Below, piece after piece: positions 5,180 to 10,359 of a DNA stretch of 64,000 bases; position 1 is the first letter of the stretch; each line of letters opens with the position of its first letter. Position numbers and translations under genes: made by a program. This stretch comes from Puniceicoccaceae bacterium (GTDB taxonomy: Bacteria; Verrucomicrobiota; Verrucomicrobiia; Opitutales; Oceanipulchritudinaceae): positions 313,542-377,541 of the forward strand of contig JBFOMH010000017.1 in NCBI GenBank assembly GCA_040830765.1, written 5' to 3'. The notes beneath the pieces are model-generated. The model searched no databases. It saw nothing but the letters and a program-made list of their open reading frames with translations, and was not told the origin of the DNA.

Positions 5180-7249
5180 CTACTTGGTGTTGAGCCGTTC
5201 GACGGTCTTTTTCTCAAGGTCCCTCGGCATCTCCTCGTAGTGGGAGAAGGATTCCGAGTGGAAGCCGCGTCCACCAGTGATGGACCGCAGTGAGGTACTG
5301 TAGCGATACAGCTCCATCATCGGTACCGATGCCCGGATAACCTGGAATTTACCGTCTGTGTCCATCCCCTGGATGCGCCCGCGGCGACTGGAAATGTCGC
5401 CCATGACGTCGCCCATGAAATCTTCCGGAACCTTGACCTCAATGGACATGATAGGCTCCAGCAGACAGGGAGAAGCATCCATGAAAGCCTGCTTGAAGGC
5501 CTCCTTGCCGGCAATCTGGAAGGCAATGTCCTTGGAATCGACTGGGTGCATCTTGCCGTCATAAAAGTCGATTTTGACGTCAGTGACGTGGCAATGGGCC
5601 ATGATACCCTCGCTGCAGGCGGATTGGACACCCTTTTCCACCGAGGGAACAAAGACGCGGTCCACATTCTGGCCCACGAGGGACTGATTGAAGTCCACAC
5701 CCGAGTCCCTGGGCAGGGGCTCGATGCGCATCCAGACCTCTGCGAACTGTCCCGCGCCACCAGTCTGCTTCTTGTGCCGGTACTTGGACTCAGCCTTTTT
5801 GCGGATTGTCTCCCGGAAGGGGACTTTCGGCTCGCGCAAGGTGATCTCGACATTGAAGCGCCGCTTGAGGCGGCTCTTGATTACTTCCAGATGCAGTTCT
5901 CCTTGTCCGGAAAGGACCATTTCCGCGGTCTCCATGTTGTTGACATAGAGGAAGGTCGGGTCCTCCTCGTGCAGCGTGGCCAGACCTTCGGCGAGTTTGT
6001 CTTCATCGCCTTTGGCTTCAACTTCCAGGGCACCATGGATGTTTGGCTTGGGATACTCGACCGCCGGCAGCTTAACCTTCCGGTCGGGACTGCAGAGTGT
6101 ATTCCCGGTATGCGTGTCCCGCAGTTTGACCATGACGCCAATGTCGCCTGCGGTCAGCTTGTCGATCGATTCGCGCTCATGTCCCTGCAGGGTGTAGAGC
6201 TGGCCAATTTTCTCCGGACAATCCCGGTCCGTATTGTAGAGTTCCATACCGGGCTTGATCTCGCCCGAATAGAGTCGGCAGAAGGAAAGCTCGCCCACAT
6301 GTGGCTCGCTGATGGTCTTGAAAATATAGCAGGCCGATGACTTGTCGGAGAGCGAGATTTCCACCTCTTCGCCTTTGGAATCAAGTGCCGGTACCGTCTT
6401 GCGGTCAACCGGACTGCTGCCGTACTTGGCGATGAAATCCATCAGCCGGACAACGCCGACATTTGTTGCCGCGGAGGTGACGAAAACCGGTATGAAGCTT
6501 TGCGACTGGATGGCGGCATGGACACCCTCCCGGAGCTGTTCCTCGCTCAGGCTGCCCTGTTCGAAGAAGGTTTCGAGGAGGCTGTCATCAGCCTCAGCAA
6601 CAAATTCGATTAGTTCCCGGTGAAGCGCCTTGACGCGCTCCAAGGCGTCGCCTTCCGCGGGCTTCTCAGTGAATTTGCCACTGCCGTCGCTGGCGTAATC
6701 GATTTCCTCGGAACGCATCACATCGAGGACCTGATTGAAGCCAGGGCCGGCATTGAGTGGCAGGGTCATCGGGAAGACCTGGCTGCCGAAATGGTCCCGC
6801 AGGTCATTCAGAACATCGTCAAAATCGACATTCTCACGGTCTGCCCCGTTGACGACAATCATCTTGGGAATGCCGTACTGGGTGGCATATTCCCAGACCT
6901 GGTCAGTACCGAGTTCAGCTCCGCTGCTGGCATTGACCACCACCATGGCGAAGTCGCCCACACGCAGGGCGCCCAGACCTTCGCTGATGAAGTCGAGGTA
7001 TCCGGGAGTGTCGATGATGTTGAATTTGCGGCCTTCCCACTCGGTGTGGAGCAGGGAAGCGTGGACGGAAATCTGACGCTCCTTCTCACTGGCGTGGTAG
7101 TCGGAAACGGTTGTTCCGGCCTCAATGGAGCCAAGGCGCTGGATCTTGCCGGCACAGCGCAGCATGGCCTCTGTTAACATTGTCTTGCCGGAGGCCTGGT
7201 GGCCCACGACGGCAAAGTTCCGTATGTTATCGGGGGTATAGGATTTCAT
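5180..7249 (-). CDS. Elongation factor G paralog (EF-G2-like)
   Basis: GHQASGKT, DTPGY, HKKQTGGAGQF; full five-domain length; not in an rpsL-rpsG-fusA-tuf operon. Confidence 0.88.
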   Translation of the reverse strand: MKSYTPDNIRNFAVVGHQASGKTMLTEAMLRCAGKIQRLGSIEAGTTVSDYHASEKERQISVHASLLHTEWEGRKFNIIDTPGYLDFISEGLGALRVGDFAMVVVNASSGAELGTDQVWEYATQYGIPKMIVVNGADRENVDFDDVLNDLRDHFGSQVFPMTLPLNAGPGFNQVLDVMRSEEIDYASDGSGKFTEKPAEGDALERVKALHRELIEFVAEADDSLLETFFEQGSLSEEQLREGVHAAIQSQSFIPVFVTSAATNVGVVRLMDFIAKYGSSPVDRKTVPALDSKGEEVEISLSDKSSACYIFKTISEPHVGELSFCRLYSGEIKPGMELYNTDRDCPEKIGQLYTLQGHERESIDKLTAGDIGVMVKLRDTHTGNTLCSPDRKVKLPAVEYPKPNIHGALEVEAKGDEDKLAEGLATLHEEDPTFLYVNNMETAEMVLSGQGELHLEVIKSRLKRRFNVEITLREPKVPFRETIRKKAESKYRHKKQTGGAGQFAEVWMRIEPLPRDSGVDFNQSLVGQNVDRVFVPSVEKGVQSACSEGIMAHCHVTDVKIDFYDGKMHPVDSKDIAFQIAGKEAFKQAFMDASPCLLEPIMSIEVKVPEDFMGDVMGDISSRRGRIQGMDTDGKFQVIRASVPMMELYRYSTSLRSITGGRGFHSESFSHYEEMPRDLEKKTVERLNTK

Positions 7250-7359: not shown

Positions 7360-8160
7360 CTACTCCGATTCAACCGGATTGGACAGACGGCCAATTCCCT
7401 CGATCTCAACCGTGTATTCGTCTCCCGGTTGGAGAAAGCGTGGGGGAGTTCGGGCAGCTCCCACGCCGGAAGGGGTGCCGGTCAAAATAACTGTCCCGGC
7501 CGGTAAAGTGGTGCTGCCGCTGAGGAAGGCGATGAGGTCAGGAACGGAAAAAATGAGGTCGGACGTATGGCCATCCTGCATCAGATCCCCGTTGAGGAAG
7601 CCGCGAATGCTAAGAGCGCCCGGGTCCGGGATGTCTTCCCGGGTAACGAGGTGGGGCCCGAGCGGACAAAATGTATCAAATCCCTTTCCCCGGCAGAATT
7701 GGCCGCCTCCCCAATCCTTTTGCCAGTCGCGGGCGCTGACGTCATTTGCCGCTGTGTAGCCGAGGACATGGTCGAGGGCATCCTCCGGGGCCACATTTTG
7801 GCAGGTGCGTCCAATGATAACCGCCAGTTCGGCCTCAAAGTCGACCTTGTCGCTGCGCAGGTGTCTCGGCAGCCGGATCGCTTTGCCTGGGCCCTGGAGG
7901 GTCCCCGGCATCTTGATGAAAAACACGGGATGCTGGGGCAGTTCGCCGCCCATTTCTAGCGCATGGGCCCGATAGTTCTGGGCAATGCCAATGATCAGCG
8001 ACGGCCGTAGCGGAGCCAGCCTTTCCCTGATGGGAAGCCGCTTGGAACTGACTTCATACTCCCCGAAGAGATCGCCCTCAATGAGGTTGCCTTCGTCTTC
8101 TCCGGTTTGGTTCAAATGAACAATGCAGCCGGACTCATCACGCGTTCTAATAATCTTCAT
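7360..8160 (-). CDS. Fumarylacetoacetate hydrolase family protein
   Basis: NYRAH, DFEAELAV, NDVSARD, GKGFDTFCPLGP, TGTPSGVG; start at ATG 8160. Confidence 0.9.
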   Translation of the reverse strand: MKIIRTRDESGCIVHLNQTGEDEGNLIEGDLFGEYEVSSKRLPIRERLAPLRPSLIIGIAQNYRAHALEMGGELPQHPVFFIKMPGTLQGPGKAIRLPRHLRSDKVDFEAELAVIIGRTCQNVAPEDALDHVLGYTAANDVSARDWQKDWGGGQFCRGKGFDTFCPLGPHLVTREDIPDPGALSIRGFLNGDLMQDGHTSDLIFSVPDLIAFLSGSTTLPAGTVILTGTPSGVGAARTPPRFLQPGDEYTVEIEGIGRLSNPVESE

Positions 8161-8269
8161 GGGGCTTTCCTGGGTTTGAGGGGAATTTTTCCTCGACAAA
8201 ACGTTCCCTAATGGTCTATTGCCTAGAGGTTTACGAATATTAAAAGACTGGGACCAGCAATTTTATCGA

Positions 8270-9610
8270 ATGAGGAAAAAAATCGTATCGCCAAGGAAGT
8301 TCGTCAAGCCGTCATTCGCCTATCTTATTGAAAAGAAGCGCGATGGTGGAGAGTTCACGCAGGAGGAGATCCGCTACATCGTGGATTCCATTATCGACAA
8401 GGACATGCCGCCCCATCAGCTGGCAGCACTGTGCACGGTCATTTATTTCCAGGGCATGAGTGCCCAGGAAACAGCTGTCCTGTCCGAGGAAATGATGCTT
8501 TCGGGGGAGGTCATTGACCTCTCGCGGATCACCCGGCCAAAGATTGACAAGTATTCAACCGGAGGGGTTGGTGACAAGACCACCCTCGTCCTTGTTCCGC
8601 TGGCAGCCGCCTGCGGGGTGGTGATGCCGAACATGAACGGTGTCGACGAGGAATTTGTCATCAGCAGTCTCGACAAGCTCAGTGCCATTCCCGGATTCAG
8701 TCCGAAAATGGACCTCGATGGATTTGTGGAGCAGCTGAAGGGCGTCGGTTGCGCGATCTCCGAGCAGTCCAAGGAGATTGCCCCGGTGGACGATATCATT
8801 TACAACATGCGGCAGCAGACGGCCACTATCCCGAGCCTACCGCTGATCACCGGTTCGGTCCTGAGTCGCAAGCTCGCTCAGGGATCCGAAGGCCTTGTGG
8901 TCGATGTCAAGTGGGGCAACGGGTCCTTTATTCGCGATGTTGAGCAAGCTCGCCAGCTGGCGCGTTCGATCACTCGCGTGGGCCGCTCCATGAAGCGTCG
9001 TTGCGTGGCCCTGGTCACGGACATGAACCAGCCGCTGGGAGACACCGTCGGCACTGGGCTTGAGCTGCAGGAAGCGATTCAGCTCCTGAAGGGTGAAGGT
9101 CCGGAGGATTTGCAGGAATTGGTCCTCAAGCTGGGAATGGAGATTGTCCGTCTGGCGGGTGTCGCCGGTTCCACCCTTTCCGCGAAACAGACGGTCCAGC
9201 GGGCCCTCAAGGAAGGGACCGCCTTTGAAAAGTTCAAGGAAATGGTCGCTGCCCAAGGTGGCAAGACGGCCTGCCTGGATGACTTGGAGAAGTTCCCCAA
9301 GGCCAAGTATGTGCGCAAGCTTCCGGCTCCCAAGCGTGGTTACGTCCATACCATCAATGCGGGCATGATTGCCCGTGGGGTCCAGTTGCTGGGCATGGCC
9401 TCCGGAAAGTCGAAGAAGCTGGACCCGGCGGTCGGGGTATCGGAAATCAAGAAGGTCGGTACGCAGGTCAAGCAGGGTGAACCGCTGATGATGATTCATT
9501 ATAATGATGAATCCAAGCTGGACAGTGCTCTCGAGTACTTGAAGGCCGCCTACCGGTTAGCCCCGAAGCGTCCAAATACGCCGGAATTGATCGTCGAGCG
9601 GGTGGCTTGA
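8270..9610 (+). CDS. Thymidine/pyrimidine-nucleoside phosphorylase homolog with degenerate active site
   Basis: KKRDG, STGGVGDK, LDKLSAIPG, DVKWGNGSF, DMNQPLG; full length; DKH changed to DKY and phosphate loop altered. Confidence 0.85.
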   Translation: MRKKIVSPRKFVKPSFAYLIEKKRDGGEFTQEEIRYIVDSIIDKDMPPHQLAALCTVIYFQGMSAQETAVLSEEMMLSGEVIDLSRITRPKIDKYSTGGVGDKTTLVLVPLAAACGVVMPNMNGVDEEFVISSLDKLSAIPGFSPKMDLDGFVEQLKGVGCAISEQSKEIAPVDDIIYNMRQQTATIPSLPLITGSVLSRKLAQGSEGLVVDVKWGNGSFIRDVEQARQLARSITRVGRSMKRRCVALVTDMNQPLGDTVGTGLELQEAIQLLKGEGPEDLQELVLKLGMEIVRLAGVAGSTLSAKQTVQRALKEGTAFEKFKEMVAAQGGKTACLDDLEKFPKAKYVRKLPAPKRGYVHTINAGMIARGVQLLGMASGKSKKLDPAVGVSEIKKVGTQVKQGEPLMMIHYNDESKLDSALEYLKAAYRLAPKRPNTPELIVERVA

Positions 9611-9757
9611 GTGCGGCGTGTCCCTTGGAGTGCGGCAACTTGTTGCCGCCTTGGAAGGGCGCGACGTGTCGCGCCTGAATGAAAGCTGCGTCAAGCCGCA
9701 GCACTCCACGAGGAGCGCCTGAATGAAGGCTGCGTCAAGCCGCAGCACTCCATGGAG
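9607..9757. repeat. Left REP cluster (GGAG-tagged palindromes, 2 tandem 44-bp units)
   Basis: GGAGT-GCGGCAAC-TT-GTTGCCGC, GGCGCGAC-GT-GTCGCGCC and 2x GCTGCGTCAAGCCGCAGCACTCC; direct repeat of 10356-10501. Confidence 0.9.
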
Positions 9758-9819: not shown

Positions 9820-10359
9820 ATGCAGCAGAAGGTCAGTTGGCACCATGCGCCGCCGCATTGGATTGAAGAAAAGGGCATTTACATGGTGACAGGGGCAACT
9901 CTGCACAAGAGGCACCTATTCAAGGATCCTGAAAGCCTCACGATGCTCCAGTCACTCTTCTTTGAACTTTGCAGTGAATTCAAATGGTCGCCCCATGCCT
10001 GGTCTTTTTTCTCCAACCATTATCATTTCATTGGTGAGTCACCTCCCGAGGCGGAAACCCTGCGACCGATGCTTTCGAAGTTGCATATGCAATCAGCTAA
10101 ATGGGCAAATAAGAGAGCCGGAACTCAGGGGAGGAAAGTCTGGTATCAATTTTGGGATAGTCGGATAACCTGGGAGCGCTCCTATTGGCCGAGATTGCGC
10201 TATGTAAACGAAAATCCGGTCAAGCATGGCCTCGTATCCAATGCTGCCCTGTATCCATGGTGTTCCGCATCATGGATTGAGAACAACGCCCGGCGTTCCC
10301 ACCTTCGCAAGATGTTGTCCTTTCATACCGACAAGCTGAAGATTTTCGATGATTTTTGA
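9820..10359 (+). mobile_element. REP-associated tyrosine transposase (RAYT/TnpA-REP, Y1 HUH family)
   Basis: HAPPH, YMVTGAT, NHYH (HUH), FWD, YVNENPVKHGLV (catalytic Tyr), YPWCS; flanked by REPs on both sides. Confidence 0.88.

Follow-up and report, generated by a model that had tools for sequence, protein, structure and literature searches.

Introduction

For proteins built on the nucleoside-phosphorylase fold, three described systems stand closest to the one considered here. Firstly, there are the pyrimidine-nucleoside and thymidine phosphorylases (PyNP/TP; NP-II, including Pdp and DeoA, with 1brw as structure). Human thymidine phosphorylase is inactive once its His116 has been replaced by Phe or Lys (PMC2719695). 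In the same source the base is hydrogen-bonded by both His116 and Lys221 (Lys221 at base O2), and phosphate binding by the Gly-rich loop is a proposal, as yet unproven. A modelling study has His82 as the catalytic residue and Lys81, Lys108 and Lys188 as phosphate anchors (PMC13629066), and PMC5238616 names the E. coli equivalents of these active-site residues. Secondly, YbiB/TrpD2 retains the superfamily fold, has lost catalysis and presents a positive surface on a head-to-head dimer (PMC10123104 and PMC9835598); YbiB binds DNA and the acidic tail of ObgE (PMC10123104). TrpD2 is a two-domain, TrpD-like form, LexA-regulated in E. coli, that has lost the phosphate/PRPP-binding motif. Thirdly, archaeal AMP phosphorylase (NP-II; 4ga4/4ga5) is catalytically active, has an additional N-terminal domain, and offers a precedent both for changed function and for multimers formed through the C-terminal domain (PMC8376864).

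The window (the whole stretch of DNA that was analysed, 64,000 nucleotides of a Puniceicoccaceae contig) holds, at 8270..9610 on the + strand, an open reading frame that resembles PyNP/TP in its three domains, its 43% identity and TM score of 0.93 to 1brw, and its modelled N-terminal dimer. It differs from these enzymes in carrying Tyr for His82 and an acidic loop, in a basic N-terminal tail and 61 newly fixed positions, in a median isoelectric point of 8.7 against 5.6, and in being a near-universal single copy unlinked to nucleoside catabolism genes. Judged by its sequence, this variant ought not to be classed among the phosphorylases: the catalytic His and the Gly-rich loop fail, despite two NCBIfam cut-offs being passed. 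A likeness to YbiB/TrpD2, raised in the first-pass annotation, holds as an analogy and no further. Fold, lost catalysis and positive dimer surface recur in the variant as predictions, and its loss of a phosphate-binding motif is analogous and independently derived; unlike TrpD2, however, the variant keeps the PYNP_C hammerhead, sits among PyNPs on trees in which TrpD2 rows were not included, and would carry most of its basic surface in a domain absent from the TrpD-like form. YbiB has been shown to bind nucleic acid; for the variant, such binding is inferred. The variant would work like YbiB/TrpD2 in principle but is not a member. No description of the subfamily was found in literature searches that lay within reach of few subscription papers or bioRxiv supplements and included term searches of PMC3444138 and PMC8204192; a term search finds no mention of 'phosphorylase' in the latter, which concerns verrucomicrobial symbionts of 158-163 kb. 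What emerges is a pseudoenzyme that is real, under selection, present across the order and core-gene-like in its behaviour.

Fold and predicted assembly

The open reading frame encodes 446 residues with no stops or frameshifts, as previously annotated, and contains Glycos_trans_3N, Glycos_transf_3 and PYNP_C (the last matched over residues 358-430), as in pyrimidine-nucleoside phosphorylases. Its predicted structure is a confident PyNP fold (pLDDT 92.5), for which the best Foldseek match is 1brw, the G. stearothermophilus PyNP, and the ESM Atlas returned PyNP clusters only; 4ga4/4ga5 share the fold at a TM score of 0.84-0.85 and 29% identity. Curated profiles place it less simply, with the cut-offs of TIGR02644 (423.8 vs 409.05) and NF004490 (420.6 vs 269) exceeded and those of NF004747 (391.6 vs 559) and TIGR02643 (358.9 vs 570.7) missed. 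The AMP phosphorylase profile TIGR03327 is far from satisfied (212.1 vs a cut-off of 535, the match beginning at model position 77), and no YbiB model appears among the nine NCBIfam matches. A contig from an independent run covers 7972-8683, spanning both altered motifs described below with 0 differences, and assembly error is therefore excluded.

The basic N-terminal extension that the first-pass annotation had pointed out occupies residues 1-16 (8270..8317, +; residues 1-8 modelled with low confidence), is lacking in canonical enzymes and has a median net charge of +5.5 across 52 orthologs. A two-copy model gave, in three runs, the canonical head-to-head dimer, with residues 16-24 and 47-60 of the N-terminal helical domain (part at 8318..8449, +) and residues 180-186 at the interface. 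It scored 0.73 against 0.00 for the best control, with 100% contact agreement between runs and pLDDT of at least 89; the mark used is passed by 20 of 30 solved pairs and 1 of 23 single chains, and the score may profit from likeness to solved PyNP dimers. The interface, as predicted, is free of the subfamily's new motifs.

The altered active site

Counts below refer to 52 aligned orthologs of the variant and to 143 canonical controls, the latter drawn from the 150 best profile matches by taking the rows that bear the catalytic His, and so chosen by that residue. Those 150 were read from 12,979 matches, among which other independent losses of the His are possible. The variant aligns to 1brw without gaps over the active site at an offset of 13, giving the equivalences Y95=His82, Y178=Tyr165, R181=Arg168, S196=Ser183, Arg200=Lys187 and K201=Lys188. 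Both the motif DKYSTGGVGD (8546..8575, +) and the loss of its catalytic His stand as first annotated: Tyr95 (8552-8554) takes the place of His82, with K94, S96 and TGGVGD retained. Position 95 is Tyr in 46 orthologs, Val in three, Phe in two and Cys in one; His occurs in 0/52, against 143/143 of the controls selected by it.

The former Gly-rich phosphate loop likewise reads as reported, NMNGVDEEFVISS (8630..8668, +). Its 11 residues (123-133) have become NGVDEEFVISS, acidic and hydrophobic and of unchanged length, with SGRGLGxTGGT gone and D126-E127-E128 at 8645-8653; this is the model's least confident core block (pLDDT 75). Two or three acids occur at 126-128 in 51/52 orthologs (D or E at 126 itself also in 51/52) and none in 141/143 canonical sequences, and the acidic loop is therefore no chance feature. 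His82, Ser110, Thr120, Asp169 and the loop glycines, conserved at 86-100% in the controls, are lost in the variants, and Thr at position 133 is left in just 16 of 52. Ser110 and Thr120 are, together with Ser83 and Thr92, what we take to be phosphate contacts. The loss of Lys108 (here N121) carries no evidence, since Met occupies that position in 76/143 canonical sequences.

It had been claimed that the phosphate site was replaced and the base-binding site kept, and both statements need qualification. Of the phosphate site, only the half formed by the loop is gone, while K94, S96, T105, TGGVGD and K201 remain; the equivalents of K81, S83, T92, Q153, D161, Y165, R168, S183 and K188 are all present. 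In the base-side pocket (8801..8872, +), Y178 (equivalent to the lid residue Tyr165), R181, S196 and K201 are retained, with Asp169 changed to Gln182 and Lys187 to Arg200. The pyrimidine contact annotated as 'S...K' was off by one: the Lys counted is K201, whereas the Lys187 position is Arg200 (Arg in 30, Lys in 21 and Ser in one of the orthologs, vs Lys in 142/143 canonical sequences). R181, K201, TGGVGD and K or R at 94 are each found in 52/52 orthologs, and S196 in 50/52; the old pocket is, on these counts, still under some constraint. Phosphorolysis itself has very probably been lost.

In intact PyNPs of other Verrucomicrobiota (loci L094-L106, L111, L112 and L176-L185), the loop His116 is mostly Ile, Pro or Leu (SGRGLG[I/P/L]TGGT), which may represent an early stage on the way to loop loss.

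Distribution, origin and selection

Across an entire order the variant is a core gene with near-universal presence, a point that the first-pass annotation missed. At a variant-profile threshold of E 1e-140 or better (no canonical copy in the class sample scores better than 1e-131), exactly one match occurs in 292/301 genomes of the order, each at least 90% complete, and by hand count the gene is present in 35/37 order genomes of at most 1.1 Mb. Nine of the 301 are without a full match, among them G595 with a 43-residue match at the locus end, G307 with a partial match and G508 with no candidate. That the order is Opitutales follows from the names of homologs (Opitutales, Puniceicoccaceae, Cerasicoccus, Rubellicoccus). 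In many genomes the variant is the sole family member; in this one, the search proposed earlier for a second canonical pdp/deoA yielded an intact pdp on contig C2, 935-2185.

Beyond the order, a variant-level score was reached in two of 210 class genomes, G338 and G345, and the His and Gly loop are intact in all 33 other outside-order sequences read (15 + 18). These two genomes (L174 and L175; 1.3-1.8 Mb, family f79) carry the variant motifs and nest in the Opitutales clade, either as a misplaced lineage or through transfer. A metagenome-assembled genome labelled Spirochaetes, P0119, carries the variant at 81% and is probably mis-binned. The sole copy seen with an in-frame TAG is G017:C98:41155-42492 (L062), from a genome 74% complete, and represents either an error, a real break or readthrough.

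A quick tree places the variants (19 of 87 rows) in one clade with an SH-aLRT of 100, a long stem and short inner branches, and a second tree recovers them (8 of 49 rows) at 100/100, its bootstrap not having settled. In the second tree, a 100/99 branch separates the variants and the intact PyNPs of other Verrucomicrobiota from the canonical copies of Opitutales. This suggests that the Verrucomicrobiota's own PyNP lineage was repurposed, the tree being unrooted and the sister group not fixed. The unrooted topology does not favour a recent duplication of the canonical Opitutales gene as the variant's source.

Across 63 of 66 same-genus pairs (those with dS below 0.05 or saturated being left out), median dN/dS is 0.040, with a range of 0.004-0.077. 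Identity of the variant exceeds that of ArgS in 171/171 pairs, EF-P in 76/78, LpxC-FabZ in 36/36, LpxA in 28/28 and RlmI in 15/15, and that of the canonical paralog in 10/10 (72-94% vs 48-69%). It falls in the range of RecA, uL2 and uS2, being above uS2 in 10/10 pairs, uL2 in 6/10 and RecA in only 3/10, with the uL2 and uS2 identities taken from stop-to-stop frames with variable tails and possibly low. In the 0.88 Mb genome G027, the variant is 65.5% identical to this copy against a median of 43.6% over 357 pieces (at least 200 aa aligned); 22 others lie above it, among them EF-Tu, GroEL, RpoBC, gyrase and DnaK, names given partly by sequence reading. Strong purifying selection on the variant is the plain reading of these comparisons. 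The selected, non-catalytic protein put forward at first pass is supported by order-wide substitutions, a dN/dS of about 0.04 and the intact second pdp; the changes are neither unique to this strain nor accompanied by relaxed selection.

New constraint and a proposed function

The 61 newly fixed positions, defined by a residue that at least 94% of variants share and canonical enzymes seldom have, fall mostly in residues 226-309 and 346-442, with one in the old loop. They include a basic helix end and strand at residues 232-245 (8963..9004, +) identified by conservation comparison, and a signature helix-loop-helix, GVAGSTLSAK, at residues 287-309 (9128..9196, +), found in 50/52 orthologs and 0/143 canonical sequences and almost intact as a region in the four most diverged members. 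The C-terminal hammerhead domain (PYNP_C; 9305..9607, +) has gained the invariant basic motifs KRGYxH (355-360), QVKQG (399-403) and RLAPKRP (429-435) and an ERVA end, the KRGYxH and RLAPKRP patterns each occurring in 52/52 variants vs 0/143 canonical sequences. Mean column conservation is 0.88 in variants vs 0.53 in canonical enzymes over residues 206-345, and 0.86 vs 0.41 over 346-446, where the median net charge is +8 vs -1. The rise in isoelectric point has exceptions on both sides, with members G510 at 7.1 and G338 at 6.1, and two intact relatives that are basic (8.4 and 8.6). The newly fixed residues would lie mostly on a putative basic surface of the alpha/beta and C-terminal domains, which lends indirect support to the nucleic-acid binding first raised as one option; whether the variant has a nucleic-acid- or RNP-binding role is, in our judgement, an even call.

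The account that we tentatively put forward begins with a single event near the Opitutales ancestor, in which a Verrucomicrobiota PyNP would have given up phosphorolysis and become fixed in a new housekeeping job. The fold and, as modelled, the head-to-head dimer would have been retained, the elongated dimer displaying basic surfaces with which it may bind a polyanion. The most likely target would be RNA in a core machine (the ribosome or transcription complex), or chromosomal DNA, and the protein would act as a constitutive factor at about the level of RecA or RNA polymerase; secondarily, the remnant pocket may take a terminal or flipped-out pyrimidine. A salvage enzyme would, then, have been recruited once into the order's essential machinery, either as a stoichiometric subunit that accompanies the ribosome or RNA polymerase or as a chromosome organiser, and conserved like a ribosomal protein even in genomes of 0.7-1 Mb. 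We regard this as possible, and short of probable.

Protein-level information comes from one replicate of the proteome of the Opitutales isolate Verruconatronum alginivorum (supplementary Table S3 of PMC13274419). The sole 'thymidine phosphorylase' there, pgaptmp_001287, accounts for 0.121 and 0.168% of length-corrected counts in conditions 1 and 3 and for 0 in the shallow second condition. In the same table, RecA stands at 0.16/0.15%, RpoB at 0.26/0.23% and L11 at 0.11/0.11%, with DeoC at 0.04/0.05% and TrpD and ObgE each at 0.03/0.04%. From its listed length of 448 and the order-wide presence of the gene, we infer that pgaptmp_001287 is the variant; a comparison through locus L093 found it not syntenic with the variant. 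The independent-run contigs give no proof of transcription at the present locus, since intergenic DNA is covered too, and a promoter scan returned a single sigma-70-like site, on the opposite strand and at chance level.

Alternative explanations

An unlikely alternative is that the pocket has been re-tooled. The acidic loop would then bind Mg2+ or provide a nucleophilic carboxylate, and a pyrimidine nucleotide or RNA base would be bound by the Arg, Ser, Tyr and Lys residues that remain. The protein would be either an enzyme of new chemistry (a transferase, a hydrolase or one that modifies RNA) or a regulator that senses nucleotides, its basic surface docking the macromolecular substrate. The near-constant acids at 126-128 speak for it, as do invariant R181, K201 and TGGVGD, the retained half of the phosphate site and the existence in the superfamily of a Mg-PRPP transferase, TrpD (PMC9835598). 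Against it, pocket residues have been lost from intact genes: G031 lacks acids 126-128 and has Ser at 200, P0122, G582 and G658 lack Y178 and R181, and P0125 lacks TGGVGD and the acidic loop. The new surface motifs persist in P0122, P0124, P0125, G582 and G658 despite the decaying pocket. Furthermore, R181 lies next to residues 180 and 182-186 of the modelled dimer interface and may be structural, and the likely level of the variant in the one proteome is 3-5x that of TrpD, PyrE, DeoC and ObgE. The same observations weaken, as core functions, two proposals of the first-pass annotation: a nucleobase sensor fits poorly with a base Lys that is mostly Arg and with diverged members that lose the pocket and keep the surface motifs, and phosphate mimicry by DEE with a triplet that varies (DEE, DED, DEN, EHD) and is lost in G031.

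We consider it improbable that the variant is instead a structural polymer or protein scaffold, in which acidic N-terminal and basic C-terminal domains pair, or an acidic protein partner is bound as YbiB binds the ObgE tail. The charge distribution fits, the N-terminal helical domain (residues 17-80) carrying -8 in variants vs -3 in canonical enzymes opposite the +8 of residues 346-446, and so does conservation along the whole chain. Such conservation is typical of polymers and hubs. Archaeal AMP phosphorylase, of the same fold, forms >40-mers via its C-terminal domain (PMC8376864). All three runs of the two-copy model, however, gave the canonical N-terminal interface alone, in a model that cannot reveal a second contact, and no co-conserved unannotated partner came to light among 52 proteins hand-picked from the 180 G027 open reading frames at 50% identity or more to this genome. 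Ranking these by shared conservation gave no partner: 50 belong to ordinary Pfam families and two are short and without any.

That the variant still phosphorolyses nucleosides, its active-site losses being compensated, has very little probability, even though it passes the TIGR02644 and NF004490 cut-offs, retains the fold, dimer and most base contacts, and is the sole family member in many genomes. Besides the residues lost and the three carboxylates placed beside the anion site, the human H116F enzyme is dead (PMC2719695), and the metabolic company kept by the two genes differs. In 30 hand-chosen genomes, seven variant carriers had neither deoC nor PNP_UDP_1 found, and five of the seven no upp either, whereas 10/10 genomes with a confirmed canonical copy have deoC, PNP_UDP_1 and upp. 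As a pattern, among kin that are not independent, the canonical copy follows nucleoside metabolism and the variant does not. The canonical pdp on contig C2, moreover, lies between rho and a purine nucleoside phosphorylase, and the variant is not so linked.

The internal stop in G017 might be cited for a sequencing artefact, or for a pseudogene that is decaying or confined to this strain, but this reading is already refuted by dN/dS values of 0.004-0.077, order-wide retention and the independent contig with 0 differences.

Implications

Core-gene behaviour is rare among bacterial pseudoenzymes, and rarer still is the late addition of a component to the core machinery of an entire lineage. If the proposed account is true, the Opitutales (marine, soil, gut and genome-reduced alike) rely on an undescribed housekeeping factor derived from a salvage enzyme, and catalysis has been lost a second, independent time in the superfamily, after TrpD2. 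Where the variant is the sole copy, 'thymidine phosphorylase' annotations and pyrimidine-salvage reconstructions are probably in error across the order. The order also gains a clean single-copy marker in the signatures GVAGSTLSAK and RLAPKRP. Cultured members exist for testing, homologs being named from Cerasicoccus and Rubellicoccus.

Genomic surroundings

Across 40 larger loci no conserved operon was found, reduced genomes and this window having other neighbours; argS recurs divergently in 19 of the 40 and efp convergently in 13, and neither adjoins the variant here. The canonical copy, G000:C2:935-2185 (L072), has the order rho - pdp - PNP, and similar-sized open reading frames flank the intact pdp of family f81 (L177-L181), which suggests an old arrangement, resting on the f81 side on ORF sizes.

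That the variant replaces a lost ribosome-assembly factor was considered and rejected, the absences of RimM, RimP and Era not being specific to carriers: RimM and RimP occur in 0/28 genomes, carriers and non-carriers alike, and Era in 0/11 carriers and 7/17 non-carriers. As an observation in its own right, searches that recovered RimM and RimP from 10 control bacteria found them in 0/28 Verrucomicrobiota genomes, with Era in 7/28, and Verrucomicrobiota seem to mature their 30S subunits without RimM, RimP or Era, or with unrecognised forms of them.

Within the window, a second-type elongation factor G (5180-7249, -; NF009381, below the TIGR00484 cut-off) is encoded two genes upstream of the variant and adjoins a fumarylacetoacetate-hydrolase-family gene that is divergent from it. 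Downstream, GGAG-headed, REP-like palindromic repeats (9620-9755 and 9820-10359) lie between the variant and a REP-associated tyrosine transposase (NF047646, 78.7 bits against a cut-off of 80). The GGAG repeat pattern has 18 matches in the genome, against 0 for the reversed control, and extra copies lie just beyond the transposase.
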